Source of the DNA: Moniliella sp. 'wahieum'
Lineage: Eukaryota
Reading direction: 5' to 3'
Assembly (NCBI GenBank): GCA_003971905.1
Contig: RSEE01000022.1
Span: 496,001-560,000, forward strand
Length of the DNA: 64,000 nucleotides
The position numbers and the translations under genes were made by a program. A model generated the notes under the pieces. That model was given only the letters and a program-made list of their open reading frames with translations, did no database searches and had not been told where the DNA came from. Within the stretch, counting starts at the first letter, position 1; every line of letters begins with the position of its first letter. Positions 5,578-59,036 of this stretch are shown one piece after another.

Positions 5578-5932
5578 ACTAGTCACGAGTCACCGGTCGC
5601 CGTACTAGTCACGCTAGTCACCGGGCATTACCTAACTGTGATAGTCACCTACTAGTTACTGTGGCCATGTGCCCATCATGGTCCCTTGACCAAGGCAGCC
5701 TGACCGGTGCCCACCTGCCCAACCTGCCCAACCTGCCCAACCTGCCCAACCTCGCGCCTGGCCCGCATACCTCTGTTCTTCCACCCCTGTAGTCATGTCC
5801 CCGTGACATTGACATGTGACAGATCGCCCAGGGTCATCCAGTCCCAGGGTCGCCACCTGTCATGCAGGTGATGTCACCACTCAGGCGGAGCTCAGCTGGC
5901 GCCTGTACCTCCCGGTCCTCGGTCATGCATGC
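5578..5932. repeat. Palindrome-rich intergenic cluster (CTAGTCAC, TCACCGGT, TGACATGTGA, TCATGCATG)
   Basis: Read directly; upstream of the Bem2-like gene. Confidence 0.7.
5714..5749. repeat. (CCTGCCCAA)4 tandem repeat
   Basis: Read directly. Confidence 0.9.
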
Positions 5933-6506
5933 AACGGGGACTTCCACTGTGGAGCCTGTGGGTGAAGCGCATATTATAGGGCAGTAGTAGCGTAAGCAAT
6001 CGATCGCAAGAAGGGCGTGGGGGGTAGAAAGCAGGGGGGATGTAGGTGAAGGCTATGAGTCGCTGGCTTACGTGCTAATAGCCACGTGTAAAACACGTCA
6101 ACAACAATCTTCCGAGTCGGATCATCGATCCTCGATCATCGGTCATCGATTAACGCAAGTGCTCCACCAGGCTCCACCCTGTGCCTCACCACACGTCTTC
6201 AAGTTTCAAGCTAGTCACCGTCACAACGATTACGGTGATGATGAGCTTTATATCTCTCTTCGGCATCCACATCTGGACCCAAATTCACAGCTTCCGCCGA
6301 TCCTATCTACGACTTCAACATTACTACCTGTATGACTCTCTGCACCATAATCGCTGTAAAATGCGAAGCGAATCAAAAGTTCCCTTGATGTATGGTCGTC
6401 TCCCACAGTGTAGATCAATCAGTCTCTACCCCGAAGGTGTCTCAATTCCGGATACAGAGACATTGGCTCTATTCGAGCAGTAATAGGACGCATGGCATGT
6501 GACAGC

Positions 6507-8806
6507 AACATACGGAGAGATGGGGAAAGGATGAGGATCATATTCATGGAGAACTAAGGAGGCGATGTAGATGTACCTTGGAGAAGATAATATGTGAGTT
6601 GTTGAGTCAAACGGAGAAAGGAGAGAGCGTAGATAAAGGGAAAACAGGGGGTTTTAGGACAAATCAGGTTCCAGCAAACCTGGTGACTATGTATGTGTGA
6701 TCAGATGGGTCTGATCCCTACTACTATAGACAGTATGCAGTGCTACACAAGAGGGACGCCTTGTGATGGGGCTGGGACGCCAACAGCAAGCTATCTCCCA
6801 CAGTGTCGCTGACAGCTATATAGAAGGGAAAGAGCATAGGTCAAACAGTCTCTAAGTATACTAGGCAGGATCTACAAGGAACATACTGTCAACACAAAGA
6901 AAGGAAACAAGTGAACGAACCCTGCAGCCCTCGCATCAACGAGGAAAACATCAGAGACCAGCGTGAAGAGGGATGAAGTCCCCCCTCAGGACCTTATCGC
7001 CAAGAGAGCCATGTGAGCAAGAAAAACAAGAAGAAGCGTATACAAAGGAAGAGGGGTTCTCCGCCCCCATCGTCATAGGAACGAGGAAGCATGGGAGGAG
7101 AGCCTCTTAGCGAAAATGGGACGCTCACATTATCACGAAGTCCATCTCAGAGGTCATTTGCTTACAAGACCTATTAGTAAGTATGAACCATTCAAAGCAG
7201 AATAAAGGCAGAAACTGGATGATGGATCGCCTGCGGGCCGTATACAAATGGGATGCAATCCAGGTCGCGCAGATCGAAGGAAACAAGCCCATTTTTGATA
7301 TATGAAGACGCACACAAATGCCAACGCTTACACGTGAACCCAGCCCGATCTTGAGGTAAACACAACCCAGGCAATAAGGGGAGGGAGGTTGTACAGTCAC
7401 GCCCGGATCGCCTATTATACTGCTCCCACAGTCCAGCGTGACAGTTGCGCTAGTTATCTTACGCTGAACTGATGACAACAGAGCCACAATTATGGCGTCC
7501 AACTCTATAGACATCGCGAATGAAACCACAACCAATGATTGGATCCCGAAATGATGAGGGACAGAAGACCACTACAGGCTTAAAAGTCCAAAGGTACGCC
7601 GGGCGCGTGGAGTAAGATCGAGAAGACGCAAATGTGCATCTTGCAACAATAATACGGCAGGCGATGAGGCCTGAGTCAGTCTGTGTACATGGTGATCTTT
7701 TATAGCCTCAAGAACATCCAAGGCACGCAGGTGTTCACATCTTGAACAGAAAATACAGAAAAGAGCATAAGATGATAACGCATGCGAAAAGGTATACCTT
7801 GTAAAAACAATAATGGAACTCTGTCAGCGACTTTGATTCAATAGACACATCAAACTGATGCACTCAACTTGAAGATAAAGGGCACCTGTACAGTACATGG
7901 TGCTTGTTACCCCGTTCCATACCGGCGATGGACCAAAGCACTTGTACAAGATGGTCAAGCAGGAAAAAGTAAATTCAAGTATAATAGCCAAGTAATATAT
8001 GGCACTGACGATCGCCTGTAAGCGACAGTACTATAACCATATGAAAACCGGCCGTCTGTTCAACGTTCCAGCCGTCCATTTTCTGTATATGTCGAGGGGG
8101 AATACTCAAACATCAAAAAGGAGACTAGTCGGGTCGGTTTACCAACAGCGAGTTGAAAACGGTGTAGCGGATGATGTGCAGGCCAGAAACGTCACAGGCA
8201 CAACAGTATTACCCACTGAGAGCGCGTTAATATCTTAACACAGTATGCTACGCATGTACCGTAGAACATCCACGAATCGTACAGGAAAGCGTATGCGGCT
8301 ATATATCAGTAGGTGGCCAACGATGTGATAGGGGAGGAGGGGAAGGCAATGCGCGGCCACCCCTCTAACCCCCACCTCTTAATAAATCTCAACTCACGGT
8401 GAAGTGCCGACTTGCCTAGAAATCTTCTCAGCAAGGCGCCACAGCACAACCTCTCATCCTTGCCCACTACAGCAGATCATGTCGCCAAAAAATATATCTT
8501 GTCATGGGGGGAGTCCCGAGGTGGGACCCAGCCCTGCATCACTTTAGGGGTACACACCCTTGGACAGCCAATCGGAGCCACGTTGTCGGGATCATATTCA
8601 CCTCTGATCACACTTCTACTAGTCGTCACCAGGTTGATTGATCCCTGATTTGATCTAGGAACTGTTTTCCCCCTTTGACTAGCTCCCCTTTCCTTCGCGG
8701 TGTGACTTAGCTCGCATGCTCTTCTTCTCCGAGGCATATATCCCTCGCCCTCTTTCCACTCGATGAATATAATCCTCATCCTTCCCCCATCTCCATCTCC
8801 TGTTAC
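6507..8806. repeat. Degenerate inverted pair of about 270-bp repeats (about 6507-6780 on +, about 8520-8806 on -) in an AT-richer, ORF-poor patch; probable TE or pseudogene relic
   Basis: Collinear shared blocks: GAGATGGGG.AAGGATGAGGAT.ATATTCAT.GAG; AAAGGG..AAAACAG; CAAATCAGG; AACCTGGTGAC; GTGTGATCAGA; TGATCCC; GTGATG..GGGCTGGG. Confidence 0.65.
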
Positions 8807-10689
8807 ACGTACCTTAGGTCCTTCTTCAGATCCTGGGTGAACCGACCGGGTGTAGAGACGAGGGAAAGGCCCTTTAGTTTGGGTGGCTGCCTGCATGCAA
8901 AAACTGCAGCTTAGACTCTCCGAGACAGGAGCCCCGTACGTAGGTCGTCAGACTAATAGAAAAGAGGTCCAGGAGCTCCGGGGTAACGCTGTTCCCGGTG
9001 GCGTTACCAATTCGACGCGCTGTGCAGTAAGCGGAATCAGACGGAGTCCTAAAGACGAGCCAGCGCTATAAGTGCCTCATGCCACAGGTATAGTACAAAA
9101 AAAACCCCGCCGGCCAGTCTTGGGCCCCACAGGGGTTTCTCTTCAGGGTTGGTCGCCCAAATGGACATCGCAGTATGAAACCGACACCCCTCCGGCCGTG
9201 TTATTGACCTTTCCCACAAAATCAAGAAAAAATGCTGCGTCCTTTTCTTTATTGGTTGCAGATTCATGCTGTTGTTGATGGCCAACGCGCCTTGACAAAA
9301 ACATCATTTTCCCTCTGGTTATTTAGTACTACTAGTTGCAATAACAATACTAGATAGCAGGGCCGCAGTAGTTGCAACTGGCTCCATCTTGGTTCTCTCA
9401 TCTCTCAGTTGTTTTCCGCGTCAAGATCTTGTCTTTAGCTCGGTGACACGACGAGCACCCACACCTTTTTTGGATGGTGTATGCCTACCCTTCCCTCCTT
9501 ATAGCATAGAAGATGAGCATGACAGGAGTCAGCAAAGCCGCTGCATGGCGTTTCGCCCCGTCCGCACAGCGGAGATGAAGGGGCAAAAAGAAACGCATGT
9601 TATAGAGACCAATGATACAAAACTGCCACACAGAGCCTCACGGCCCCGTAACAGAAGATGGATGTGTGGGAGCTACTAACTGCTATGGTGTGTCCGGCCC
9701 CACCTCCACCTCTCACCGCTGGGTTTGGTCTACGAAAGTACTAGAGCTCTCCCTCGTACTTTATCGTTGCTTGTTGTCTCGCTCGAGCCCCGGCCATCGT
9801 TAATAGGCAGGGTAGCTTGGCTTCGATAGTGGGTGTTAGTAGTGGCAAACCGAAGAAGGGAATACACACATCCTCCCCTCTGTATGTTGTACTATACTGG
9901 GCAATGGCATTTTCATGTTATTTTTTGTCATCTCACACCCCTATACCAATGGTACTACGTCATAGGAACACCTGACGAATAGGTTCAATGATTGGGCATC
10001 CTATGTAAAAGGGATTCTCAAAAATTTTGACTATACCGTTGGTTGATAATACAGTCTGCTGGAGTGTGCCGGTCTTCCTCTCAAATCGCATGTCCTCTCA
10101 TCGATCACCCCGTACGTCCCCTTCGTATATACAGCCTCTCTCCCGTTTCGCAATGTAACTCTCTTGCATTTGTCCAGGCTGGCTAGCACAACTTTCCCTT
10201 GCTCTCTATTATGATCTAAAACCTCTACTTGCTACCCCCCTTGCATTCCTTCCAACCCAGTTAGTATAAGTATGCTCCCTTTGTATCTGTTCCATACACA
10301 GCGCTACAACTATCCCCCGTGTATCCCTTCCCAACCCGAGGAAGCGCGTGTGGATACGGATGGACGTGGTAGACATCGGAGCGGTGACCTTCTCCATTGG
10401 GAGCCAGTAGTCAAATCCCGTCAGTGCCCAAGCATCTTGCCCGCTGCCTTGGTGGCATAATATCCTCGCGTCGTCAAAACCAAGGGGAAAACGGTTCTTG
10501 GGTGCACTCTTGGTACTTGACGTTCTTGTCGCGTTCTGCTTGCTCCAGCAGCCGAAGCAGTTCCTTTTCTCCCGGCGTTTCACAGGTCGCGCGGCGCTTC
10601 CGGTACCCTCAATAACCTTCACGTATGCCAATGACTTTTAGACCAAAAGATTTTGCCCAAAGGATGAAATACGCGCAGCTCGGCCTCTG

Positions 10690-12446
10690 TGTGAGATCTG
10701 AGATCTGAGATCTGATTGCATAGGGAGGATCTCAGATCTCACAGATCTCGCAGGAGACTTGATCGAATAGACGAATTTTAGGGGGGCAAAAAACATGTGG
10801 CTGCTTCTTCCCTGCTCTAGAGTGAAAAACTACTAGTCACTAATCACGCGAGAGTCACATAGAACGAAGTGCCAGCCACCTATGGCGCACAGTAGGTTTT
10901 AGATGCGGTACAATATATACACTGCCATGGTACATGGTACATGAGAAACACGGAGGATCGATGATCGATGGTACATGGTACCACAGCGACTAGTGACTGT
11001 TTAAGTGAACGTTATATACGAACGCTCGTTGCGAGGTTCAGGCGGAGCCAGCGCTCAGACGCTCAGGCTGAACGCGCCGAACGTTGGACCCTGCAGGTAC
11101 CAAGAACTGAGTTGAACGTGTTGAACCGTTGAACCCTGTTGAACGTTAAACGTTAAACGTTGAGCCACTACAAGGCCCAAGGCACGGGCGCCACATTTGC
11201 TTTCAAGGGGGGGAATGATTACCATGGCATGCATGATGCGTTATGCGTGATGCATGACTGACGGAAATGGCCGTGGGGTGATCTATGTGATTTGGGGATG
11301 ATGCTACCGCCGCATAGCGGAAGTGACGGGCAAATATCGGGATTTTAGCCGGTGTTGTCCCGGCCCGGCAGAACGGCAGTCCGCATATTCAGCGAACCAA
11401 CCTGCCAAGCCCGGTGGCCACGGGTCTTGTGTTTCACGGCAAATCGCGGTCGTTCGCTAGAACGTTAGGCGCTAGGCGCCGGGAAGAAAGTGTCACATGT
11501 CACATTCCGCCAATACACACCACAGGCGCGAAGCGGTGCTCCCTCAGGGGGGCTTCTGCAAGGAATATGGTTTGGAGAGGAACGAGCTATAGCAGGCTGT
11601 ATTAATAGCCGTGGGGGCTGTCTGTACTTATAGCCCCGAATAGGCCCTCCAGAGCTGTTTCCCCCCAAACTGCCTTCAAGCGTCAAGCTTCAAGCTAGTC
11701 AAGCTTCAAGTATCATGCAATCATGCATCATCATGCACATCATGTTTCATGCCACATTATGCACATGAGTATGATGCGTGACAGCGGTTACACTATAGCG
11801 GTTCGCTACCGAACATCAGACATATATTGAGCACTCCTGTGCTTTATGTGAAAGGCCACAGAGAAAAGAGCCGGTTGTATGGATGGCATCAGGAGGTATT
11901 GCATTAATTAGCACTCAACATGAGCATGAACGTTCAGTTGAACGACGTTGAACTATATATATCGCCGCGAGAGGCTAGGGAATATTCCAGCCCTCGCCAG
12001 CAGGAAAGCGGAAGGAATGCGCCGAAAGAACCCGCGCGCTCGGGCTCCCAACCGGCGCTACTAGCTACTACTCCAGGGTGGCACCACACTTGCTGTATCA
12101 TGCAACCGTCTAAAGCCATGCACCACGGGGCATGTGTGGGTTGCCAGACTTTTTTCGGGCAAGTTTAAATTTGTTGAAAAACAGGCCATCAACAGGGTGC
12201 AGCTAGCAAATCACCAGGTCACTGATCACCGATCACCGATCACCGACCACTAGTCACTAGTCACTGGATCACCATAGCCACTCGTACTGTGTCCTGATCA
12301 CCATTTGGACTCGTACTCACTGGTCAATCTCACGTCGACTGGTTTACTGCTTGTGACATGTGAGGTACCGGGTACTGAGTGTACTGGGTATAGGTCCGAC
12401 TGACTGAGTACTGGTGTACATGTCGCTTCTGTCACATATCACATGT
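10690..12446. repeat. Largest cluster of heptamer/palindrome micro-arrays, upstream of the permease
   Basis: (AGATCTG)3 10694-10714; (ATCGATG)2 10957-10970; AACGTT x3 11142-11162; TCAAGCT run 11676-11710; TCATGCA run about 11713-11737; (GATCACC)3 12224-12244; (CACTAGT)2 12248-12261. Confidence 0.9.
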
Positions 12447-16449: not shown

Positions 16450-16553
16450 CATGAGACCAGAAGTCCGGATAGTCCTTGAGGGTAATGCAATCACACTGGT
16501 GGTGGTGGTGGTAGTGTAAGCCAACCAGCAACGTCTACAGAGGAACATCAAGA
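16450..16553 (+). repeat. Dispersed repeat copy 1 (others at about 35745-35990 and 48957-49180)
   Basis: TAAGCCAACCAGCAACG(T/C)CTACAGAGGAACATCAAG is shared with about 49017-49053; CTACAGAGGAACTTCAAG at about 35816. Confidence 0.8.
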
Positions 16554-16931
16554 ACCCACCCTCAGGCCTCACGCGTCACGAGGCAAGAGCTGCCGAGGAA
16601 AGTAAGAAGCTCAACTCCAACTCGGGCAGCTGGCAAAGGCAATAAATGAAGGGTACGGCATATTGTTTTGGTAGTGGCGATGCAGGCAATCGCTCGTTGT
16701 ACGGCAAAATAAGCATGCCCGCGTCCAGCCAAAGGCGTACAGTTGCTCTAGCATTCTCGAGTGCATAGCGTAGATCGAGAAGTACCTGATGTCCCGCATC
16801 GCGTGCAATACGTAGCAGGAGATGAACATGAGCAATGAAGCAATATGGGAAGCAGGCGTCAACATCGAGCGACCAAGTGAGCCGAAAGTTGGCTTCAAAA
16901 ACGTTCCAAGAAGCCATAGGGCCGAAGACGT

Positions 16932-17574: not shown

Positions 17575-18033
17575 TTGATCATCGATCATTGATCACTTGA
17601 CCGGTGACCGCTGGTCGTGCATGCATCATGTTTGAACATTTGAACAAATGGAGCATTGAATGCATTCGTTCCAACGTGTTCACACTCACAGGCGGCCTCA
17701 CCGGCCTCATCTCCTGCCTCACCGCCGGCTGATGTTTGTTCCTTGTTATATACAAGTATCGATTTGGCCAGATTTGCGGCAAAATGTCCAAAGGTATACG
17801 CTGAATGTCGTCGCCGTTGGCACAGCAACGGCACGCGCGGATGAGCTGTGAACAACGCGTTCAACATCGATCACAACAGAGCTGATTGGAAATGCCCCGC
17901 GGTAATAAGCCCCCGAAGTAATAGCAATATACAAAGGGCGCGCTTACCGTCTAAAGGCTCGGTCAAGAGAACATTGTGTCACGTAATCACGTAGACCAGA
18001 CCACATGGTCACATGGCTAGCCCACGTACTCAC
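17575..18033. repeat. Heptamer/palindrome cluster upstream of RPP1
   Basis: TGATCATCGATCATTGATCA; TGACCGGTGACCG; TGCATGCATCATG; TCACGTAATCACGTA; CACATGGTCACATGG. Confidence 0.75.
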
Positions 18034-21238: not shown

Positions 21239-21622
21239 TGATGCATGATGCATGATGGGACACTACTATTGTTACGCTCGCTGCTAGACGCACTAGCCCT
21301 GCTGTGCGGTTCGAAACAATCCCCAAAGCAAAAGCACCCTTCCCCTCCCCCCGCACCCAACCACTGAATAATGTGGAGCCCCGCAATTCAGAAGGCTCCA
21401 CACGCAAGGTTGCCATTAGATTTGCGCAACGGATTACGTGGACCCTACACAGCCAGTCGCGGCCAAGCCAGACGAGAAATCACCGGTCACCGGTCACCGG
21501 TCACCCCCGATGTACTAGGGGACCACACCGGGCCTACGGCCCCCGGTCTGCTGGGGCTTCGCCCCAGTTTGGTGCCTGGTGCTTGGTGTTTTGTGCTTGG
21601 TGCCTGGTGCTTGGTGCTTGGT
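21239..21622. repeat. Heptamer arrays in a divergent promoter
   Basis: TG(ATGCATG)2ATG 21239-21257; T(CACCGGT)3CACC 21480-21505; about 7 degenerate TGGTGCY units 21570-21622. Confidence 0.9.
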
Positions 21623-23395: not shown

Positions 23396-23478
23396 GCCTC
23401 GCTATTTCAATCGGTAGAATTTGAGACTCTTAAAGAGTTGCCATCTCACGGTTGTGGGTTCGAGTCCCACGTGGGGCG
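23396..23478 (+). tRNA. tRNA-Lys (CTT) with 10-nt intron at 23433-23442
   Basis: Acceptor GCCTCGC/GTGGGGC; anticodon stem TGAGA/TCTCA with CTT at 23429-23431; T-arm GTGGG-TTCGAGT-CCCAC; intron AAGAG pairs with CTCTT. Confidence 0.95.
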
Positions 23479-26319: not shown

Positions 26320-26442
26320 GGTGAGTCCGGTGGCCGGTGACCGGTGACCGTGAGTACGACTCACTGAGTATATTACCGTTGAATGTTGCAATTGATTTGA
26401 GGCCTCGGCCCCCTTAAGCTTTAAGCGCTAAGCGCGCTGAGC
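26320..26442. repeat. Heptamer/palindrome cluster upstream of the RING gene
   Basis: CCGGTGACCGGTGACCG 26334-26350; CTTAAGCTTTAAGCGCTAAGCGCGCTGAGC. Confidence 0.75.
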
Positions 26443-27565
26443 ATGCCGCAGCAATGTATCGTCGAAACAACAGCAGCCCCCCAACACAGTGGGATCGATG
26501 ATTGGTGACCAGTGATTAATGATTCATCCCAGTCAGTCATATATGTACCGAGAGCGAACCCATCGAGCTGCTGCATCCACGCCGCGGGGAAGAGCATCCT
26601 GGCATGCCCGGCGCCTGCCCTCTTGGTGGGAGAAGGGAGGATGGGAAAAGAGATATATGACTACAACAAACGCATGTGGGGACACATGTCTTCTCTCGCG
26701 GCATCGTAACAGCAGAAGAAACCGCGGAGGATTCACATCTGAATGGCTGTGCTGACGCGCTGACGCGCTGACGGCTCATACATCCAGCTGCATAATTCCC
26801 TCTATGATTGGGCGGGTGGGAACGCGTTCAGTGCCTGGGTGTCTTCCAGTTTTGCTCCAAGTAGCGGAGATGACGAGACCCCGAAGAAACAAGCCATCCA
26901 GTCAGCGAGTCAGCACGCGTGCGGCACAGCGATAACGGTAACTTGTGGCGGTAGTACGAGTTTTGTCTAAAGTGACGCTCACTCCCTATGCTCCACCGCT
27001 CAGAAGATTGTGTTATATGAAGCCCAGATCTGGTTCGATACATTGGTTCAAGCATAGCCAGTATCTTCTCAATACCCACTCCGTCAAGCCAGACGAATTC
27101 ATGCATCTGAACTCCATTGGTATCTGCTTGGGACCCAAACGACAGTCTGTTTACATCAACTGTTGCCGTGGCCACGCTGATTGTGGGTCTCTCTCTCGGA
27201 AGGGTGGAGGAGCAACTTCAAATTTACCAAAGATCGCATGCCACAGAGTCATCGACAACGAAGCAAATCCACATTACAGTTCCAAACACGGCCAAGAAGG
27301 AACTTAGCCTTGGGGCCAAGAAAGGAATGCGAGCATAAAGTGCAGCAGTGTTGCTGCTGCAGATAATACGATATCATTCCTGGTAATAGCAGGAGCAGGG
27401 TGGATAGGGAGATAACGGGAACCACATGTTCTGGATAGGCACTAGTGGGAAGGGGCGGTGTTGTGATGCAGCAGGTTTTTAATACCGTCGACAAGGGAGT
27501 GGTGCCCAGACGTGTCGGTGCTGGTCGTGCTACGATGGGTGTCGGTGGGGGCGAGAGAATTAGAC

Positions 27566-35203: not shown

Positions 35204-35415
35204 TTCAAGCTTTAAGCTTTACCATTTATTCCCACATGTAAGCACGCCCCTAGCCCCTCCTTGAGGGGCCTGAGGCGGCCTGAGGGCCTGAGGCGGCCTG
35301 AGGGCCTGAGGCGCTTACTGACGTACCGAAGACTCAAGCTTCAAGCTTCAAGCTTAGCGCTTCATGTTCACAAGTTGAACGTTCACGCGGTTCACAGCCA
35401 ATATATAAACGTTTA
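35204..35415. repeat. Heptamer/palindrome cluster upstream of the bZIP gene
   Basis: GGCCTGAG x5 at about 35267-35311; T(CAAGCTT)3 35334-35355; TGAACGTTCA. Confidence 0.9.
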
Positions 35416-36773
35416 ACAATCCTGAGCTGCCTACCTGGACCTGGATCGGCCTGAAAGCAAAATAACAGAGACTATATATATCAACACCATCTTGCGTGTT
35501 CCACAATCCATATTGTCCGCTTGCCTATCCCTTGGAGGCTGCTGAGGCTCAGCACTAGTAAGGCTCGGCGCTCTCATTAAAAGCTCTCATTCACCTTTCT
35601 AGCTTTCAGCTTCAAAAGCTTCAACGATGGCCATCTGGATGTCAGCATAGCTGCGTCATCATGATGCCGCATTCCATTCCCTCTGTTGGCTCTTCTCTCC
35701 CCCTCCTTCTGCCGGCCCGCTCTCACAGAACTGTTGGAATTCTGATGGTCCTCGGGCCTCGAGGGTGATGCAATCGCACTAGTGTGGCGATAGTGGACAA
35801 GTCAACCAAAAGCACCTACAGAGGAACTTCAAGCAGCCAGGCGCGGCCAGGGGCTAGTACTATAGGTTACGCGGTTACGGGACAAGAAGGAAAACAGAAG
35901 CGAGAAAACAACGGAACTGCTAGGCCTCAGTGAGGCCGACGGACTGAAGGGACGTTTTGGCCAAAACAAAGAAGCCACCCCCGCTGTGGATCAAGAAGTA
36001 GTACTCAGGCACCTGCCCGTCACCAAAACAATGAGAGCTCCTTATCTAACCACATTCAGATTTCCAGTCTTCAACCCTTCCATTTCTCATGCAGTTACGT
36101 CAACCTCCAAAAGCTAACACCTGACGGAGTGCTATGACTGTCATGACTCTTATTGAGTGTTCCCATTCTCAATACACTCGCCATTTCGCACAGAACTCCG
36201 CCCGTAGCAGATTCTAGTACCCCCCCCCCCCCCCCTCATCGACGCCATACGCGTCATCGATGTGACTATTGTGGCCATCTTCCCTATACCTAACGAGACG
36301 GCCGACTCGGATTAGCAGGTTCTTCCACACCAATGGACATAATTAGTACCAGCCACAGAAGGTGGGCTCAGCCCGTATTTTATGGACCCCATTTTCACAA
36401 CTCTGTGTATACACATCGGTTGCAGTCTACTAAGTTCCATGAATAAGCTTGCAGTGCACTTTGGAGGTGGTATATGGGATCGAGCGCCTCCATTGATGAA
36501 TGAAACCCCAAGACGGGTCAATTGAGGCTAGTCTTGCTTTCTTGCAACAGAAGAATCCTGTCAAGTGCCGTTAACGGCCCCTTCCCACAGATGGGCAGCC
36601 AAATAGTAGCGCGATAGTGACAACTACTTCATACATACTCCTGGACGGAGAGCTTTCCTTACAGGGAGCCTGGAGACTGAGTGAGCACATAGTCTTTTTC
36701 TACCGCCCGAAGAGCGGTGGGACATGGATGGAAGGATTGGAGCAACGCATGCTCGGAGAGAACCATCGGCGAA

Positions 36774-37177: not shown

Positions 37178-38967
37178 GTTGGTAGTGAAAGTGGTGGTGG
37201 TATGCAATCGTCAGCGCTCAGCCTGAGCGCCATTCGGCCGGCAACCGCAACCGTTCCACTTCCTACCCATTTTACGTAATGAACATCCGGTGCCGAATAA
37301 TTTACCCCGTTTCAGGCGTGTAGAAATAGCCGGGTGACCGGTGACCCGCCGGTGACATGTGACAGAAGAGTCCATTGGAGATACGACTCTCATCGACCTC
37401 ACGGCTCCACACCAGGGTCCATAACCACGTCTCCATTTGTATCCACCCGCGCTACATCCTTTTTGGAAACGAGTGACAGGAGCCAGAAGGCCTCCCGACA
37501 ACGTACAGTGACTCTCTGGGACCGCGCGTATACTAATGTTATGGGAGAGAACTTGATTAGCGTGTGTTATATGGAGAAGAAGGCCGTGAGAGACGATTTA
37601 TTGAGGACGCGGTATATTAAAACCCAGTAACAGGAGATGGAGATGGGGGAAAATGAGGATAGTAGATGGATTGGATACATATATGGACGGATTGGAGGTA
37701 TATGTACCTCAGAAGGAAGGGGGCACAGCCGAGAGGTGAACACAGGATCTCCCAACTGATAGAGGAATCACGCCATAGTGTCCATACGGGCCTAGTGGGC
37801 CAAGGTCCCCCTAGGAGGGTGTGTTTCTGACACCCAGGAAAAGCTACGCTATGTACTGTATAAGTTGTGCCACTTATGAAGACTTTGTCAGTATTCAGTA
37901 CACAGTCCAATGACCACATGTGGTCTCTGCCTTGGAACAACGCCTTTTTTTCTGGATCACCATATGGAGGGAGATACGCAAAAATGAGCTCTTGCATAGC
38001 TTGATAGCTTGATTACCCCCCCCCCCCCCCTTATACTCATTTACGGAGATGGATCTCCCCTTTACCGCTTGCTTTTCTCCCAACGGTGGTAAAGTAGAAA
38101 GCTCTTTTGCCTCGTACCAACGTCATTTGTGCGTACGTGTGTTTCCCACATCAAGACAGACAGCTATGGAAACAAAAGTGTGGTTTATTGACTGAGAGGC
38201 TTCTTGTTGATCGATCTGAACACAGCTATTCCGGTCCTGTGAACCATTATGAAGGAAAGGGAAGTTATATATACAGCGCTTTTCGAAAGCCGGTCATCCG
38301 CCCACCCCATTTTGGTCTTAAATCTCGGGAGAGCTAATCGTGACCCCCAAAAGGGAATCATTGCTTGCAGCTATGATTGTCTCCCTGCTGTGCTTTGGCT
38401 GATATCATCAGTCACATCGCTCAGTCTTTGATGAGCATGAAGAGTCATGCGAGAGGAACCAATGTCTAGATAATGGTGGGGAATATTAGCAACTGATTTT
38501 ATTGATGAAGAGATAAGGAAAAGCAAGATTGGAAACGAAACTTGGAAGAAGGCGGAAAAGGAGATATGCGACAGATATTGTTGGAAATGAAAGCGAGCTG
38601 AGGGCTCTCGGAGGGATGCCGATTCAGCGATGAGGCCGTCTTTTTCGTCTTTCTCAGAGAGGTTTCTGTGCCTGGGCGGGTTTTCTACTTCTCTATACTG
38701 CATCCATATCATTGACAGAGCTTAAGGCTGGGACAGGGAGAAACGCTACGCCTAACCGCGACCAGTTCATCTTGCGTGTGTTGCTACTTGTAGCGCCATC
38801 CTGCTAGGGAACCAGGGGAATCGCCAGGATATCAGGACCCTCTGGTGCTCGCCATCCGGTCCCGTACCCGAGGTAGCGCGTGTGGACACGGATGAACGTG
38901 GTAGACATCCGAGCGAGGAACCATTTCCATTGAGACTCAGTCATAAATCGCTTGATGCTATTATGCA

Positions 38968-39628
38968 CTCAGACTGAGTACTGAGGACCTGAGCCTCAGG
39001 CCTCAGGTCACGCGTCACGCGTCATGGTCGGCAGATCACCGGTAAGAGGTCAAATCTCAGACCCCTTAGCCTGAGGGTAACTGGTAACGTGGACCAGGCA
39101 AAAGGCGCTACTATAAATGGTGCTGGCTCTAGGGGGCGTGTGGCTTAGCAATACAAGACTAGGTACGACACGATGACATTGCGCAGGTGATGCATGATGT
39201 ATGACGCACCAATGATTCTCAGATCTCAGGCTGAGCCTCAACGCTGAGCCGCTGAGCCGCTGAGCGTTTAGTTGCTGAGGCGCCGTGGCCCAAAGCTGGG
39301 AAAAATTGGAGGGTGGACCCTGGCAGGCCTGGGCGGACTGTGCACCAGCCAGTTGTTTTCTCGGCAAGCCATCCTTTGCTCCGTTTCGCCGAATTATTCG
39401 CAGGGAACTGGACAGGGGGGCAGTGTCGGGCAAAAATCTGTCGGCCTGCTCTCTGCCTGCCGGCTGCCTGGAAAATTTTCTGGGTTTACATGTGGCAGCA
39501 AAAAAAGAGCGACAGAGGGTCGAATGGCGCTGTTCTGCAGGTGGCTGAAGCACTCACGACTCGTTGGCTGACAGCGCGACACTCGTTCAGTGCTTACAGC
39601 ATCTGGCCACTAGTGACTAACTAGTGAG
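38968..39628. repeat. Heptamer/palindrome cluster upstream of the CNT gene
   Basis: ACTGAGTACTGAG 38973-38985; GCCTCAGGCCTCAGG 38993-39007; T(CACGCGT)2CA 39008-39024; TGATGCATGATG; TCTCAGATCTCAG; CACTAGTGACTAACTAGTGA. Confidence 0.9.
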
Positions 39629-46755: not shown

Positions 46756-46841
46756 GGGGAGCTGCAGGGAGCTGCAGGGAGCTGCAGGGGAGCTGCAGGG
46801 GAGCTGCAGGGGAGCTGCAGGGGCTGCAGGGGGGCTGCAGG
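46756..46841. repeat. 8 x GCTGCAG units separated by G-runs, upstream of KGD1
   Basis: Read directly: GGGAGCTGCA(G) period 9-11. Confidence 0.9.
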
Positions 46842-47271: not shown

Positions 47272-47674
47272 GTCACGTGTGGCTGACTAGTGACTAGTGA
47301 CTAGTGACTACCGCACTTGCTCAGCCAGCGCCGCAGCTATGACCATGTCGGTTAGTTTTGGTGCAATTTATTGTGTCAGCCACAGAGAAAGCACTCTGGC
47401 AAAGAGCCAAGATGATGTCGATGATGCGTATTGCGGCCCTTGGGGCAAACTCCTTCCCACGGTTTCTTCCACATGCCAACGTGTTGACCAAAGGGCAATG
47501 TCAGGCCTCAGGAGGCGACGATTTTGACAAGTCGCCTTGTGACATGTGTCACTAAGGGCGAGCCACCTCCGAAGTCACTCTTACCCTCTTATACACATCC
47601 GGGCACCACACCAGTATCTCTATCGTCTAGTAGCCTTTTGTGTCACATGTCACATCCGATGTCACTAGCTTCAC
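47272..47674. repeat. Heptamer arrays upstream of KGD1
   Basis: TG(ACTAGTG)3ACTA 47284-47310; TCACATGTCACAT 47643-47655. Confidence 0.9.
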
Positions 47675-47681
47675 TCCTCTC

Positions 47682-47747
47682 CTCCTTCTCCTTCTCCTTC
47701 TCCTTCTCCTTCTCCTTCTCCTTCTCCTTCTCCTTCTCCTTCTCCTT
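47682..47747. repeat. (CTCCTT)11 microsatellite
   Basis: Read directly. Confidence 0.95.
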
Positions 47748-49515
47748 CCTCTTTCCTCAGTCCAACCCAGCTCCTGTCTTCTGCATAGTAACTGCACTTC
47801 GGGTTCCGCTGGGTAAAAGTCCATATTAGGGGTAATATAGAGCGAAGAGGGTGGCATGGTGAAGGGGCATAAACAAAACATACAATAAGAGGCACACGAA
47901 TATCATACCCCAAACAGAGAGAGGAAAACGGTGTGAGTAGAGGGAACAAAAAGTGGACTGCTGCGTTTGTATCCCGACGGGCAGAGTGTAACGCTGCGGC
48001 TGAAGAACGGCCCCCTGATGTGTTTTCAGTTAAGGTGCGTTCTTCCACAAAAATACGATAGTATAGACGCTCCCAACTTTTCACGTTCTGTTTTTGTTCC
48101 GGCGTCAGATCTCAGAGAGATCCATCAGTGGTGCCTATGCCCATACTAGGTGTGAATGGTTGCCCGGCTTCTGGACTATACTCCCAATATATAGTGTGGC
48201 ATGCGCCATGCTCATTTGACCCCAGGGCGATATATAATTGTCTTTTCATCTCGTCACGATGACGGACTCCAAGGGAGAGTCGAACCTTTCGAACAGCGCG
48301 AGCACATCATACACAGAAAAAAGCGACTCGATACCCCTATCACTCTCTTCTGATCAATTTGATCAACGTCATCGTCCCCTCTCCATCATCTCCCAGTGTT
48401 TCTTCGTCAGGTACTGGCTCAACAGTATTTGGTGCCAACCGCAAGAATTGCCTATCCACATTGCTCATTATGATCCCGTGTCACTACCTTATTCGAAATA
48501 TGGTATGTGGAGGAGCACCATTGGATGCCGTGGCGACAGCCATTTTGCCTGTGCATCCTTCAAGAGCGCCGACTTGCGTCTCGTCTCTGGTTATTGTTAC
48601 AGGAGATGGGCAACTGGAGATTTACGATGACAAAAATGAGACAGTCATGATGATGAAAGCTTTGGTGGCATTATCTCTTCAACAGTGGTCCCAGCAGTGC
48701 CGCCTGCTTCTCTACATCCGTAGTTACAATGACATATGAAATCCGATACGACATTCACTGTACTGCACAGATCAGAAAGGGCCCTCTGTGCACCATGAAG
48801 AAAATGGTATTCCCATCTTCCTCATATCCAGCTGCCTCCCCCTCGCGCTTGCCTCCGTTCTTCGGGCTCGTCTCCGTTCCCTGCTCACAAGAGGGCAATT
48901 ACGTATCGCAACTCTCCACGGAAGAATCTCAATGAGAGGTAATATGCTGATGATGATGAGACCTGGAGTCCGGAAGGTCCTCGAGGGTATCAATCGCACT
49001 GGTGATGGTGGCGGTCTAAGCCAACCAGCAACGCCTACAGAGGAACATCAAGCAGCGAGTCGCCACCAGAGGAGGGCTAAGCCGCGGAACAAAGAGAAAA
49101 GCAGGAGAGAGAAAACAACGGAACTCCCAGGCCTGAGGAGGAACGGAAGAGAAATTGGCCAAAGCATGAGCCACCCCATGGCTCAACAGATGAGCCAGGC
49201 TATGAAGTGTGGTGCGCCTAATCAGGTCGAAGGTGTAATACAGACTCCTATCATTGGCCACCTCTGGACAAAATGGTCTGTGTCTGGGTTGATCGCATAT
49301 GCAAATTGGACCTACAGCCCCATGCCATATGGGTTTGTCCCCTACACCCGAGGGAAAAAGGGGAGGAGGGATGTTTTGGATGCTCGTGTCCCAAACACGA
49401 GCTGGTGCTGGCCAAGGCCAGTGGGAGGCCCATAACGGATGTGGGCTAGACCAGGAGCAGAAACGGCACTTATGACGATCCTGTCCGCCGACATGGGAAA
49501 CGAGGAGGCGCATAT

Positions 49516-51807: not shown

Positions 51808-52896
51808 GTTGAACACGTTGAACAGATGAACTTCAAGCTTCAAGAGAAGCTTCAACGTCTTCAACGTTGAAGTGAATATTGAATATTGACTGCCGATCTC
51901 TACCAGATCTTGCAGAATGGTTTCATCACCATCAGGCGCTGAGCGCTGAGAGATGTTGGGAAAACACGACTGGCGTTGGGTCATGGTATTGGGGGTTGGG
52001 GGCTCAGGCTCAGCGTGGCTGGAACCAAGACGTTGTGCTGAACTGGGCCGCTGTGTCCCACCAGCCCCTATCTCAGCTAGCAGCACGGCGGGAGCTGGAC
52101 ACACCGACGAGCGGAGGACGCAAGATGGCGAAAGGCCGAGTGGGCGGAGGCCAGTCAGTACCAGCGAGAGGCGCCGAGAGACGCAGCATCCGCAGGCCTC
52201 AGGCGCGGGTCGGCGCCACCGGGCCGCAATAGGCCCATCGGGCGTGGCAGGCAGGGCGTGGCGACGTGGTAACAACATGAACCCCCGCCCCGCAGGCCAA
52301 ACGCGCGCCGTCTCAGCACGGCGGTCTCTGTCTGGCGCCGTGCGCTGCGCTGCGCGGCAGGCAGCCTGCCAGCGCGCAGCCCAGTCGAGGCACTGCAGGG
52401 CAGGCCGGGCATTGCCTGAAGCAGCCGCCGCCACTGCACCGCCCAGTGACGCTGGTGACGCCGGCCACACAGGTGCTCGCGCTCGTCTCTCCACAGACGC
52501 GCGCCGTGCTGCCATGCGGCGCTGGCTGGTGGCTTGGTGCGCGCTGCATGATGTATGGGACGCATGAGGCCAGTGTCCATCGCCATCGACCATCCTGCAA
52601 CCTCTCTCTAAGCTCTATGCTCGGTATATGCCGTGTTTGTCAGAGGGGACGGGGGCAGTGTGCTGCTCGCCCACAGGCTCAGAGCCTGCAGGGGCTGCAA
52701 GCCTCACGCGTCATGGCCACCGCGAGGCAAGGCACAAGGCACTGGCCACACGATGGATGATGCATCAGCACGACCGATGACTGATGACATGCATGATCTG
52801 GCCATTGCCATCCGCATCATCGTCATCAATGAGATCATCGATCCCCATCCTCAGCCGCGTACCACGTTCAACGTTCAACGTTCAACTCAACGTTCA
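51808..52896. repeat. Heptamer arrays upstream of the DUF1769-like gene
   Basis: TTCAAGCTTCAAG; TG(AATATTG)2A 51873-51889; GCGCTGAGCGCTGAG 51936-51950; CAACGTT run 52864-52896. Confidence 0.9.
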
Positions 52897-52996
52897 GCCC
52901 ACCCCCACCACCTCCACTTCCCCCACCTCCCCCACCTCCCCCGCCTTCCCTACTACCCCCACCTCCGCCTTTCGGCCCCCTGCTCTGCTGCCCACC

Positions 52997-55900
52997 ATGC
53001 CCGAAAAACTCGTCGTCATGGTCGGGCCAGACCGCTTCAATATGGAGGTCGCCCGCCTCAACGACGTCGAGCACCCGCACGAGATCCGATCCGAACACTT
53101 TGTCGGTCGCGTCCTTGTCCGCATCTTGGATGCTCCCGGTGGCCACCCTGGCGAGCCCGGGTACGAGTACTTTCGCGATCGTTCCCGCCGATTCGCCATC
53201 CAGATCGAAGGCCGCTTCACCCGCCCCTGGAGGGGCTCTGAGATTATCTTTGGCACCGACCTTGATCGCCTGATCGACTTTCCCCGCCGCCCCTTCAATG
53301 CTGGCATGGCCGTGGCCACATGATCGACCCCTGTGTGTACTACGAGGAGCATCCGCCTTCCGGGCGCCCGTTCATCATGTCACCCTACTGTGCTTGTATG
53401 AACACACTGTGTGCGTGGCCTGCCGCCCGCCCGTGCCCACGATGCTGTCGTTGTCCTCCAAAGCGCTGATACAACCTCAGGATCAGCCTCTAACACCCCT
53501 CTCGCCGCACCAGCATCGATTCTACCCAACCTACTGGAAGCAGCGCCATTTCTCTCGCTCCTCATGGCGAGACAGAGGTGCGTCTCGTCCTCATCCCGAT
53601 GAAGTGGACGGTGATGTGGTGCCTCTTCAAGCCTTGGATAGGAACACCATCGATGTTCCCAAGAAGAAGCGCGGCTGGTTCTCTTTGGGGGGATCGAAGG
53701 ACGAGCGCAGGACAAAAAGCTACTGGCGCTTCTTGGGTTTCATGCAAGACCCACGCGTCCGTGCTTATCTATCCGCCCACCACACCTCCTCGACGCTTGG
53801 GCTCATCAACCCAGCCACCACCTGCATCCCCACCCATCCTCCCGCCAGAAAGTCATCCTAGTGCCAGTGTCGGATCCCTGCAGCCAACGCAATCTTCTCT
53901 CTCCCCCCGTCTCATCGGGCCAGGTTGGTGACCAGCAGCGGCGTGTGTCCAGCCTTGGCGACTCGGATTCCGGACCAGCTGTTAATGTTGTGTCGGCAGC
54001 AGCACCTTCGGATGGCTCTCAGCCACTCGTATCAGTTCCTTCCGAGGACGCCAACTCGTCTCGTCTTCTCCAACAGCTTGGTTGGGCGCACACGAGGCGG
54101 GCGGACAAACGCCGGACCCAGTCAAGATGCTTTCCCGGTCGCAGAGTGAGCTGTACCGGCGCTTGTCCGCCTCGATAGGAACGGGGGGCAACAACACCTG
54201 CACGAGATTGATGAGGAAGAGCTGGATGCCTTTTGATGACCACTGCACCATCTACTCCTTTCCAATCGTTCGAAGACGTATCCCACATCCCCATGAAGCA
54301 ACCCACTTTACCAGAGGAACCAGGGGAAACCCCTCAGCACGTCTTCAGCCGCCGCCACTCCTACACCAACACAATGGCATCCTCTGTCACTGGCAACCCT
54401 TCTATTGATATACCCAAAGTACGACGAACCGCCCATTCCCGACCCGCTTCGTCCTCTCGACCCAGTCCTGTTGTACATATCGAAGAGCCCGGTGACCACG
54501 AGAAGACGGCACAGGAGAAGCGCAGAAAGCGCGGGTCCAAGATGATGCGTCGGCTTAGCATGGGAGGCAAAGACAAGGACAAGGACAGGACAAGGCAAGG
54601 ACAAGGATCATGACATGAGAAGCTCCGATCGCCTTCACGTTCGCGCGATCGCATGGGTATGGGCCGATCGTTCGATCTATCGCGCGGCATTTGGACCCCA
54701 GGCACTCTCCCGTTGCCCCCGCTGATGATCATGGAGATGAATTGGCCCAGATCTTGGAGCAACGCGATGCGCCCAACCCGGCTCGCAAGTCGATCACCCA
54801 ATCCTTGTCTTCATCGTTAGGATTCTCGCGTGTGCGAGGTTCGATGGACCTCCCTCGGCAGCCTAGTTTACCTCCCGGACAGGGGGCGCCCGGCCACTGT
54901 GGAGCGTGGAGCCGGGAGCAAGTGAAGGACCAAGTTCGTCGGTGCTTGACACTCTTGCTGTTCCCTCTATGACCAAGATGGAGCAAGCATCTCAATCGAA
55001 CTCAAACAGTTTGGCATGTCGGAGCCTGCTTCTGGTAAGGATTCCAAGGACAAGCGGTCGTCCTACACCGGCAACATATTGAAGCGAATGAACCCGCTCA
55101 ATCTGTTGAGCGGCGACAAGGATGGCAAGGATGGGAACGCGCATGAAACTTGGGGTCTTCTATTTCGGAGGCCACCACCTCGATGCAGGGGGAGGGAGAA
55201 AAGTCCGACTCGGGGCTGGATCGGATGATGAAGAGCAAGAACCATTCCAAGCGGCATTCGAAGTCTGGGCATACGCACGGATACGGCCCGCGCTGTTCAG
55301 CCAAAGATCAAGACCCTGTATCATCTCATCATCATCATCATCATCACCATGGTGATGGAGAGACTGATGAGATGCCTGGTTCAGAAGGGGAGGCCAATCC
55401 GCACCTCCATGAGCTCAAGAAGAGCGTGGGAGAAAACGCATCACGGGTGAGTTCACTGGCCCACAAGGTCGTCTTGCCTGGTCGATTGTTGGTGGACGGA
55501 GTGTCTTCGATTCCTGCACTCCCTCTCCCGCGATCTCAGGGCACTTCTCCTCATCCCGAGTCTGAGGGAACCGGAGGCCGTACGGGTCAAGCCCAAAAAT
55601 CGTCTCTCGATGGTGTTACAGAGGGAGCCCAAGGAGGCTAAAGACGACGCCACCGCCGAGCCTAAACGCCGCTTTTCGACTCGCCTTGGCCGACCCTCGC
55701 GTTCCAGCACAAACCCCAGGCGGTCTTTGTCGGTCGATTTGCGATTTCGGAAGCAGAGCCCGCGGCCTCAGTCTCCTCAGCCGCTATCTACATATTTGGG
55801 CCCCCCCAACCGACCTGCGCCGTTGAGCACGTCCCCTCTGCCTTTGGTCTCTGACGAGGGCAAACCCGACTCTACTCCTGCCGGATCTGAGGCGAGATCA

Positions 55901-57110: not shown

Positions 57111-58124
57111 TACGGCGCTAGTATCTGTCCTGAATCCCCCCTCATACCCTACCACACTCTTTTATTTCCTTCCGTTATTTCCTATTGGGCACTAGCCGCA
57201 CTCGCTTTGCCATCCCCAACTCGCCCTCACATTGGCAGATAGCTGCATTCCCTGACTTGAACTCCCCCTTTTGTGGTCATGCTCAGCGGGCTCTCCCTGC
57301 TTCTTGGCGTTTTCACCTCGTTTCCCTGTTCCCGAACTAATGATGTTTCCCTTTTAATCTGCACTTGCCTTTGCTAGTCTACCTCCTATGTGGGGTCTTG
57401 TATTTCCATGTCATTGCGGAAGCGACAGCGCATGGCACAACATACATGGCAACTTGGGATGACATCAATTAGTTGTTACGCTCGGGGCGCTTATAGAAGT
57501 TACCATATCACTAGTGCAAAGGACGGATGCATATGGCGTTGCCCAGTGAAGCAGACATCTGTGGCAGCGGCACGCCCTCCCTGCTCGCTCAGCGCGGGAG
57601 CCTTGGTGTATTGTTCTTAGAGGCGGGAACAGTGCTCGCTTACAATGCTGCTGATCGCCAAAGCAAACTGCAGTGTCCAAAGAGAAACGAGACTGTCTGC
57701 CTGCCTGCCCTTACAACGCAAGTTCCAGTGGCTCCAACTTCACCGTCCCACTACGATCCCCGGCCCAGAACTCCATAAGATGGGGCTCACCGTGGCCAAT
57801 CAAGAAATCCAACTACAGCCATACCTACCCAAAGAAAAGCCTAAGCAGGGGCTGGTTTCATTGCCATGATGAGAGTGCTTGCAAAGCGGGGGCGAGGGGA
57901 AAGCCGAGCGTGGCCACATAATGGGCAATAGGGTGGAAGAGGAAAGTCCAGCAACGCTATCGGACAAACAGAGGTCGTCCCCGCATAACAGCGGATAGAT
58001 TTTGGTGCTTCGTGGCCCGAGAAAACCCCAGGGAAAGAAGCATGGGGGTGACAAACAAGCGGAACAAGGAGGGGGTCCCATGACATGCCAATCACGGTCA
58101 TGGCGACAAGCCACAGTATTCCAT

Positions 58125-58677
58125 TTACTTCTTCTTGTTGTCCGATGCCTTGTTCTTGGCGGTGCCGAAGAACTTCTTGGCGCGGTTCTTGCGCTCCTTC
58201 CTGAGCTTGCGACCGGCGCCCTCAACCTTCTCGGCGAGACCCGAGCGGACGAGGCGGAACTTGGGCTCGAACTTCTTCTGGGCCTCGGCCGAGTCGTAGA
58301 TCAGAGCAAAGCCAGTGGTGCGGCCGCCACCAAAGTGGGTGCGCAGGCCAAAGGTGACCACCTGCTCAGCGGGCGCCTTGTACAGCGCGCCAAGCTTCTC
58401 CGACAGCTCAGCACGGCTCACGTTCGGGCGAGCGGGGTGGATGACCTCGAGGACGCACTGGCGGCGCTGGAGGAGAGCGTTACGCATAAACTTGCGCGTG
58501 CGCAGCGTCACTGGAGAGTTGGGGTCCTGGGAGCCCAAATTGTCAGTCATCCAATCCATCCTGCTGTCTCTGTGCGGAGCCGGGCAACAGATGGTCCGGG
58601 AACACGAGAGCATCGCGCACGCGACGTTCCGACATGGGTGCCCTCGACACAGACCGACCGGGCATGCAACGTACCAT
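58125..58677 (-). CDS. RPS24: 40S ribosomal protein S24 (eS24)
   Basis: ATG, intron 58527-58674, then [54 protein letters not shown]. Confidence 0.97.
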
Positions 58678-59036
58678 CTTGAGTGCTTGGTGGAGACAGG
58701 CCGGTGCTACGAGAGGCCGAAGCGGTGGCCATGCCTGGGCAAGTCTAGGGTTCAACGCTTATTCTAAAAAACTCGCCGCAGCGGCGCCAGGTTAGGGTTA
58801 CCCTACCGCCTGCTGTCACATGTTAAGTTTCCCAATACGTCGTCTCGCGCATCAACCATCGGCTCACGTGATGCGTGCACGTGATCCAACGCTACAAATA
58901 CAGGATGCAGGCATGGTGGCAATGTCCTTGTCCCTGCCACAGCAATCTAGCTGCCGCCATTCACATCACTAGTCATTGCCCAGCCGCTCAACCTCGCGCT
59001 TTCATCCCGGTATGGTACAAATGGACCCACAAAGGG

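Follow-up and report, generated by a model that had tools for sequence, protein, structure and literature searches.

A 64-kb stretch of the genome of Moniliella sp. 'wahieum' (contig RSEE01000022.1, positions 496,001 to 560,000; below, the window, which in its one assembly is the basis of all our results) is scattered with short repeats in which two like trimers, both TCA or both TGA (together TSA, where S is G or C), flank a palindromic tetramer (pal4). The pattern is real and highly non-random. From the anatomy and the statistics of these loci we infer a transposon, hairpins and joining steps: the loci would be excision footprints, that is, the donor-site scars of a hairpin-forming cut-and-paste DNA transposon with a 7-bp target duplication and a preference for G-T-S-A-C, a reading to which we give a probability of about 0.55. 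It is appealing because all classes of these repeats would fit one event, in which a 7-bp target has been duplicated and the joint sealed after a hairpin was opened off its tip.

Anatomy of the repeat loci

The motif TSA-pal4-TSA with the same S on both sides occurs 57 times (31 TCA, 26 TGA), versus 2.0 ± 1.3 times when the sequence is shuffled in 1-kb blocks; shuffling the window as a whole leaves an expectation of about one for TCA and about one for TGA. When all 64 trimers are compared around a palindromic tetramer, TCA and TGA are followed by ATG with 8 occurrences, and changing the length of the palindromic spacer to 2, 6 or 8 nt gives no enrichment comparable to that at 4 nt. Trimers with complementary S, which create a perfect 10-bp palindrome (TGA..TCA), are not enriched (1 + 3 = 4 versus about 2 expected, about 1 each). 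The two TSAs are direct repeats, as in a target duplication, and thus the enriched thing is not a hairpin-forming palindrome. Non-palindromic tetramers between like TSAs are scarcely enriched (29 versus 17.0, and 17 versus 13.9); of the 16 palindromic tetramers 15 are in use, with no favourite beyond GC content and with AATT alone absent. The initial annotation of this DNA had described intergenic tandem arrays whose unit is a palindrome A-NNNN-T plus G or C, and had held that a palindromic-core excess and an autocorrelation peak of TSA at a lag of 7 should outlast shuffling. The former is the enrichment just given, and the peak is likewise present (129 versus 70.3 ± 9.2 in 30 dinucleotide shuffles), lag 7 being the sole strong peak at a non-multiple of three. 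Hexamer palindromes of the class A....T number 312 versus 179 ± 14, and the classes C..G, G..C and T..A are at or below expectation.

The 57 matches fall into 45 loci, 36 of them single units, 6 double and 3 triple, so that tandem arrays are not what most of the pattern consists of. All 13 cores cited as arrays are found where they had been placed, and 12 of them have at least two units, the exception being AGTACT at 38973, which is single (TGAGTACTGA at 38975). Among the three cores said to be missing, AAATTT is indeed absent, but ATATAT (7296) and ATTAAT (26513) are present as single units. Different cores do sit side by side in clusters, for example in the composite run at 38973..39024, which keeps to one TSA register. 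The supposedly fixed period of 7 bp is dominant, with 42 perfect arrays of at least two copies at period 7 versus 10 at period 8 (about 3 expected, from 64000 x 0.75 x 4^-7), but relatives of period 8 and period 9 exist. Tandem Repeats Finder places many of the period-7 arrays at positions cited in the initial annotation. A 6-bp palindrome is contained in 24 of the 42 period-7 units, where arithmetic gives a chance share of about 11% of heptamers, and 19 have the build A-NNNN-T plus G or C, for which about 1.4% is expected, again by arithmetic. The other 18 units lack a palindrome and, except for TCTCTCA (9394) and GATCACC (12224), also a TSA; those lacking both are ordinary background.

The tetramer is an inverted copy of the 2 nt beside one TSA. 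In 24 of the 45 loci the first half of the tetramer recurs as the 2 nt immediately 3' of the last TSA, and in 16 its second half is identical to the 2 nt immediately 5' of the first TSA (chance 1/16 in either case). The periodicity runs on beyond the motif by 0, 1, 2 or 3 nt on the right side in 12, 8, 17 and 6 of the 45 loci and by 0, 1 or 2 nt on the left side in 25, 4 and 10; there is no geometric decay, and the maximum lies at exactly 2 nt. This maximum and the flank matches therefore point to an elementary form [TSApq][q'p'][TSApq], in which q'p' is the inverted copy of pq, or to its mirror [xyTSA][y'x'][xyTSA]. Indeed, the former is found 36 times versus 0.23 expected and the latter 27 times versus 0.13. 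Any 5-mer repeated around its inverted last 2 nt is found 112 times on the two strands, 63 of these forms starting with TSA, and the remaining 49 comprise other registers of TSA arrays, rare TAA, TTA or TAG centres and further non-TSA matches. Filler is seldom copied from the opposite end of the 5-mer (n = 7, mostly ambiguous, including the GATCACC array at 12224), and odd-centred fillers are weak (oddpal5, 7 versus 2.1; oddpal3, 22 versus 9.5).

That the duplicated unit is 7 bp rather than 5 bp follows from the period-9 loci, because their extra nt match the outer flanks. TSA-N6-TSA in which N6 consists of a palindromic tetramer and 2 further nt is enriched (18 versus 1.8, and 13 versus 2.5), and at 24 period-9 loci the two extra nt agree with the outer flank on the left (11 loci), on the right (12) and on both sides (6). 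The period-9 form is [xyTSApq][2 inverted nt][xyTSApq], as in GTTGAAC-GT-GTTGAAC (11111) or CTTCAAC-GT-CTTCAAC (51850); the form [W7][P2][W7] occurs 9 times with 0.5 expected, and 6 of the 9 are TSA-centred. The period-8 arrays returned by Tandem Repeats Finder consist of a TSA-centred heptamer plus one inverted nt (CGCTGAGC at 39242, GCTGACGC at 26751), and by our own reading of its unit the period-8 array GCTCACGC at 12589 has the same build. For the 32 loci in which a flank matches in full, the putative empty sites yield a symmetric logo, n-G-T-S-A-C-n, where G before T or C after A occupies 29 of the 64 symmetrised positions versus 26% at all TSA sites. Identically built units with TAA, TTA or TAG instead of TSA are rare (AACGTTA x2.9, TTA-AGCT-TTA, TAA-GCGC-TAA and AAGCTTT x2.1; 11142-11161, 26414-26435, 35207-35221), and the data suggest a target T-N-A with a strong but not absolute preference for a central G or C.

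Proposed excision scars and competing explanations

How could such loci arise? In the proposed course of events, insertion would duplicate a 7-bp target, xyTSApq, with T-(G/C)-A at its centre and, less strongly, a symmetric preference for G-T-S-A-C, and excision by the transposase would leave both flanks as flush covalent hairpins. Host enzymes would nick these hairpins about 2 nt off the tip, producing self-complementary 3' overhangs of 4 nt, pq-q'p' on the left and y'x'-xy on the right, and end joining would mostly retain one overhang and drop the other, which gives xyTSA-pqq'p'-TSApq or xyTSA-y'x'xy-TSApq. The product would be the empty site plus 7 bp, with direct TSAs around a palindromic tetramer dictated by the local flank. 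If one hairpin were opened at its tip, the period-9 form [7-mer][2 nt][7-mer] would result, and if it were opened 1 nt off the tip, the period-8 form [7-mer][1 nt][7-mer]. Since such a scar has two TSA targets with the same flank, a second hit on the same side would add an identical unit and build an array, and a hit on the other side would add a different core in the same register, hence the clusters of unlike cores. The composite at 16560..16580 may go back to one CCTCACG that underwent two such events, one on each side.

As expected of a footprint, the loci retain the two copies of the target, in the like-S direct TSAs and in the heptamers on both sides of the filler at periods 8 and 9, and the presumptive P-nucleotides are templated by the adjacent flank, as seen in the elementary form, its mirror and the 2-nt maximum of the run-on. 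The initial annotation had offered, as one of two readings, traces left at a defined target by repair through hairpins or template switching, and the direct TSAs, the inverted 2-nt flank filler and the junctions of period 7, 8 and 9 essentially bear this out. Other derivations were rejected. A 3-bp duplication of TSA with 2 + 2 nt of element ends would require about 15 different termini, plain 7-bp tandem duplication of palindromic targets founders on the fact that both flanks match the tetramer in only 8 of the 45 loci, and a 5-bp duplication with two P-nucleotides is contradicted by the period-9 flanks. Selection for perfect 10-bp palindromes or cruciforms does not agree with their lack of enrichment, and, by reasoning, neither topoisomerase II type +4 duplications nor FEN1-type flap duplications nor TCA lesions (from a deaminase or ultraviolet light) yield inverted filler or a 7-bp unit.

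Several points weigh against excision by a transposon. No transposase-related Pfam match was obtained among the open reading frames (ORFs) of the window (two scans, of 145 and 125 ORFs, 14 common to both), no inverted-repeat element with a TSA duplication was found in it, and inner ends resembling terminal inverted repeats occur in only 1 of 2074 pairs of identical TSA-centred 7-mers (11/14 nt). Neither flank fully matches the tetramer in 13 of the 45 loci, and 8 show no run-on at all, among them the 3-unit GATC array at 10692. Events on the right side only outnumber those on the left side only by 16 to 7 on the + strand, an excess that the model does not predict and that is not significant. 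A density of about 0.7 loci per kb of window would demand a very active element or a long history, growth of the arrays by replication slippage is inseparable from repeated hits, and the palindromes differ in their centre from those left by Ac/Ds, as set out in the last section. A BLAST comparison of the window with itself likewise found no transposon. The single pair with complementary inner ends, the best of the 2074, consists of CATGATC direct repeats around a 520-bp segment at 52792-53325, and it is probably a chance occurrence because it lies inside the Duc1 exon and Pfam domain. The right-only events split 8 and 8 between G and C for S and are in that sense unlinked to it; their excess could be chance or reflect a polarity tied to replication or transcription.

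It is conceivable, if unlikely, that the scars are not the relics of a selfish element but the ongoing work of a hairpin-forming nuclease kept by the host, for example a domesticated transposase. Such an enzyme would repeatedly break promoters at G-T-S-A-C, making 7-bp staggered breaks and hairpins in open promoter DNA, and error-prone rejoining would reseal them with 7 bp added or leave +8 and +9 scars. This explains the same anatomy, and it is consistent both with the high scar density and with the finding of no transposon or transposase remnant in the 64 kb. However, target duplication and hairpinned ends normally take two steps, insertion and then excision, and it is not evident by which route a nuclease alone should arrive at a 7-bp duplication plus flank hairpins; nor was a candidate gene seen in the window. 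Were it true, the lineage would possess an endogenous site-specific mutator that rewrites the spacing and motif content of its promoters and seeds period-7 microsatellites.

It seems doubtful, and rather more so, that simple microsatellite dynamics underlie the pattern, with palindrome-bearing 7-mers slipping by way of hairpins on the nascent strand or flap. Arrays reach 3.9 units, Tandem Repeats Finder detects decayed period-7 arrays (for example at 12210-12250 and 6120-6150), and slippage may well add units once two copies are present. However, microsatellites born of slippage should vary by whole units and be free in unit sequence, whereas the 36 single-unit loci, of 1.4 to 1.7 copies, are too short to slip, and the signal appears only with a spacer of 4 and for only two of the 64 trimers, TCA and TGA. 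Slippage should also not favour a flank-templated tetramer with a run-on of exactly 2 nt, it cannot produce period-8 and period-9 forms with inverted filler, and it leaves the lack of enrichment of C..G, G..C and T..A palindromes without an explanation.

The other reading in the initial annotation, multimerised binding sites or a chromatin code, fares poorly. We consider it improbable that a protein reading TSA half-sites 7 bp apart accounts for arrays that selection has kept in promoters, even though the loci occupy intergenic DNA, for the most part 5' of a gene, the lag-7 periodicity of TSA exists and later co-option of scars is conceivable. An array of transcription-factor sites should share a recognition core, but TSA alone is common and the core is not conserved, the 15 palindromic tetramers being used about evenly and predictable from the flank. 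Most loci offer only two TSAs, being single units. Selection for binding leaves a palindromic, flank-copied tetramer unexplained, and it should not be so indifferent to TSA-N4-TSA with non-palindromic tetramers (29 versus 17, 17 versus 14). An assembly or sequencing artefact is hardly credible, since the arrays are at most 27 bp long, far below any read length, and the pattern depends on region and on context through its flank-templated filler; we know of no artefact that would yield such a pattern.

If the loci are indeed excision scars, a single rule, by which 7 bp are duplicated at T-S-A and 0 to 2 hairpin nt are added, would account for an entire class of A-NNNN-T palindromes and short repeats in this genome. 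The target preference, duplication length and donor-site chemistry of a transposase would then be readable from its scars alone, which is a rare case, and the ancestral empty site would be predicted base by base for each locus, turning the scars into polarised markers. Cycles of insertion and excision could also make microsatellites and new promoter sequence. The genomes of Ustilaginomycotina are described, in the part of PMC5751038 on which we draw, as compact and low in repeats. The density of the scars would then suggest a large and so far unnoticed source of insertions and deletions in the intergenic DNA of one fungus of this group. Our literature searches returned no description of these arrays or of excision footprints in Ustilaginomycotina, and those aimed at the TCACGAA/TCACGAT runs that the initial annotation ascribed to Ustilago maydis, and that would be a single-core version of the same grammar, found nothing on them.

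Loci, genes and other repeats in the window

The window is nuclear DNA of an intron-rich fungus, whose exons are spread over shifting frames in the Pfam scans. These scans identify exons of an amino-acid permease, a protein kinase, a nucleoside transporter and 2-oxoglutarate dehydrogenase, of the ribosomal proteins L23, L22/L17, S24 and an acidic 60S protein, and also of Duc1, ESCRT-II, Emr1 and ATG11; Rfam adds one tRNA (23396-23478). The 2-oxoglutarate dehydrogenase exon has its closest named relatives in Ceraceosorus guamensis (77%) and Tilletia horrida (73%), followed by Violaceomyces and Pseudozyma, and the organism is therefore placed within Ustilaginomycotina, as the initial annotation had assumed. 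Coding DNA was delimited by Pfam; a crude codon-usage gene finder that flagged only 30% of the window is too weak for use, and a longest-ORF proxy is unreliable at the GC content of the window.

Set against the Pfam scans, the loci are intergenic and mostly lie 5' of genes: those at 10.1-12.4 kb precede the permease, those at 38.97-39.27 kb the nucleoside transporter, those at 47.1-47.7 kb 2-oxoglutarate dehydrogenase and those at 52.7-52.9 kb Duc1. They are clustered, the variance-to-mean ratio of 1-kb counts being 1.94. The claim that none lies in coding sequence is nearly but not strictly correct: Pfam-aligned coding stretches hold 1 of the 45 loci (44208), where about 2 chance matches are expected per window, and Pfam-supported ORFs hold 3 of 45 loci versus 341 of 2040 TSA sites. 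This suggests that the loci are depleted from coding DNA, although the depletion is not significant at this sample size (Fisher p = 0.10). Perfect motifs exceed expectation by about 55 and motifs with one violation by about 40 (85 versus 45.4), which, as a rough estimate under neutral decay, suggests a mean scar age near 0.07 substitutions per site and an activity that is recent or continuing.

Table 1. Repeat loci and arrays of the window, in window coordinates; loci carry no strand (".").
Position	Structure	Context
5810..58975	All 45 TSA-pal4-TSA loci (span)	
Starts 1-15	5810, 7296, 7665, 10098, 10692, 10732, 11248, 11493, 11683, 11699, 11721, 12254, 12354, 16562, 17579	
Starts 16-30	17598, 21239, 21480, 23740, 26338, 26513, 29351, 34804, 35334, 37211, 37335, 37353, 38975, 38996, 39008	
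Starts 31-45	39188, 39219, 44208, 47103, 47284, 47501, 47643, 48105, 51833, 51873, 51940, 52704, 52868, 52887, 58966	
10692..10753	(TGAGATC)3.4; 12 nt on, same core in TCA sense: GATCTCA x2, then CAGATCTC	
10956..10970	(GATCGAT)2.1, ATCGAT core	CATGGTA arrays on either side (10926-10943, 10968-10981)
11111..11161	Period-9 [GTTGAAC][GT][GTTGAAC] and period-8 [GTTGAAC][C][GTTGAAC]; then (AACGTTA)2.9	Target GTTGAAC; rare TAA centre in the last array
11491..11505	TGTCACA x2.1 (TCA-CATG-TCA)	Repeat continues into both flanks
11676..11744	TCA-AGCT-TCA (11683 and 11699), TCA-TGCA-TCA (11721), period-9 [CATCATG][CA][CATCATG] (11729)	Cluster
12224..12265	(GATCACC)3.3, filler GA the inverted other end of the duplicated 5-mer	Adjoins (CACTAGT)2.6
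16560..16580	CC-TCA-GGCC-TCA-CGCG-TCA-CG	Composite
17577..17646	TCA-TCGA-TCA (17579), TGA-CCGG-TGA (17598), period-8 [TTTGAAC][A][TTTGAAC] (17631)	
21239..21257	(TGATGCA)2.7	
21480..21505	(TCACCGG)3.7	First base exactly at TCA, end exactly 2 nt beyond the last TCA
26334..26350	(CCGGTGA)2.4	
26751..26773	(GCTGACGC)2.9, period 8 = [GCTGACG][C]	7-mer plus one inverted nt
35207..35355	(AAGCTTT)2.1 with TAA/TTA centre; period-8 and period-9 joints on CCTGAGG (35262-35313); (TCAAGCT)3.1	Cluster
37211..37362	TCA-GCGC-TCA (37211), TGA-CCGG-TGA (37335), TGA-CATG-TGA (37353)	
38973..39024	TGA-GTAC-TGA, (GCCTCAG)2.1, (GTCACGC)2.6	Composite run, unlike cores in one TSA register
39188..39265	TGA-TGCA-TGA (39188), TCA-GATC-TCA (39219), (CGCTGAGC)3.0, period 8 = [GCTGAGC][C]	
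47284..47310	(TGACTAG)3.9	Some 400 bp 5' of the 2-oxoglutarate dehydrogenase gene
47411..47426	Period-9 joint [GATGATG][TC][GATGATG]	
47641..47655	(TGTCACA)2.1	
51808..51889	[GTTGAAC][AC][GTTGAAC], TCA-AGCT-TCA, [CTTCAAC][GT][CTTCAAC], (TGAATAT)2.4	Cluster
51936..51950	(GCGCTGA)2.1	
52864..52896	(ACGTTCA)3.3 and another TCA-ACGT-TCA unit	Upstream of the Duc1 domain

Other repeats are present as well. A dispersed repeat in three copies (16451-16558, 35754-35981 and 48956-49177) has a core of about 100 nt with 72-85% identity and no Rfam match, and the end of its copy at 16451 directly adjoins the composite at 16560. Possible identities of this repeat are a regulatory block that the three places share, a small non-autonomous element and a non-coding RNA. 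Positions 10323-10417 and 38854-38949 have a segment of about 95 bp in common (80% identity), shortly upstream of the scar clusters at 10692 and 38973, and the homology stops before these clusters. Inverted repeats of about 210 bp with 70% identity (6517-6724 and 8582-8793) enclose about 1.9 kb in the 6-10 kb region, which is gene-poor and lower in GC (47-50%), and a third, partial copy lies at 37627-37675. They show neither a target duplication nor a Pfam match and may be the relic of an old element or a small gene family. Two ordinary repeats unrelated to the TSA grammar lie at 46756-46841 and 47669-47758 near the 2-oxoglutarate dehydrogenase gene, namely (GGGGAGCTGCA)8 in its 5' region and (CTCCTT)11-14 upstream of it.

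Relation to known systems

Heptamer arrays as such are not peculiar to this fungus. At least 123 stretches of metagenome contigs match (TGAGATC)3TGA, a unit identical to that of one fungal array, and among the matches listed (loci L001-L122) the (GATCTGA)n arrays are long, have a single core, include variant units (GATTTGA, GATTCTGA) and frequently lie next to a TCAAATTTCA unit (for example L037, 3100-3400); in environmental contigs they are very common. Other cores occur there at 0.063 per kb over 429 kb of metagenome loci, among the matches listed, versus 0.80 per kb in the window. The metagenome arrays are thus a different class without the multi-core grammar, and they are probably bacterial.

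A direct target repeat around a short palindromic filler is also the footprint of Tc1/mariner elements (TA, terminal nt, TA), but their filler derives from the element's own ends and is identical everywhere, whereas that of the window is copied from the local flank and takes the form of 15 different tetramers. The hairpins of RAG and Transib are flush and, if opened some way from the tip, leave even palindromes of about 2 + 2 nt at the coding joints, which resemble those of the window. Transposition by either duplicates 5 bp; the unit here is 7 bp, as judged from the 24 period-9 loci, where the additional nt agree with the outer left flank in 11 and with the outer right flank in 12. To our knowledge no hAT element has a TSA target.

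As far as the sections of PMC5499845 used here go, hAT, Transib, MULE and RAG systems all form hairpins on the flanking DNA, followed by end joining that leaves footprints. RAG and Transib would have this placement of the hairpin in common with the loci of the window (PMC5499845, same sections). With hAT elements (Ac/Ds, Hermes) the loci have in common that the target-duplication copies are kept, that P-nucleotides from opened flank hairpins would stand at the joint and that few junction types dominate (PMC5873905, PMC5499845, in the parts relied upon). Indeed, Ac/Ds footprints in Candida albicans combine short deletions with palindromic P-nucleotides, two forms predominate, and each palindrome has at its centre the complement of the base that adjoins the element, according to the passages of PMC5873905 at hand. 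This odd centre involves a transversion, whereas the palindromes of the window are even (pq|q'p') and no base is changed, and because of this difference a canonical hAT element is not indicated and we assign no superfamily. The canonical hAT duplication, moreover, is 8 bp, and 7 bp would fit only the hAT7 variant (PMC12730594, in the portion consulted). Among Basidiomycota, that portion of PMC12730594 lists two groups of transposons with 7-bp duplications, hAT7 in Pucciniales and the KDZ element Kyakuja of Laccaria (Agaricomycotina), each of which resembles the window in duplication length; it reports hAT7 from rust fungi only and does not mention Ustilaginomycotina.

The process that we propose would therefore be of a known kind, the formation of excision scars with P-nucleotides, and what sets the scars of this window apart is the 7-bp unit, the targeting of T-S-A, the even palindromes, the very high density and the building of arrays.

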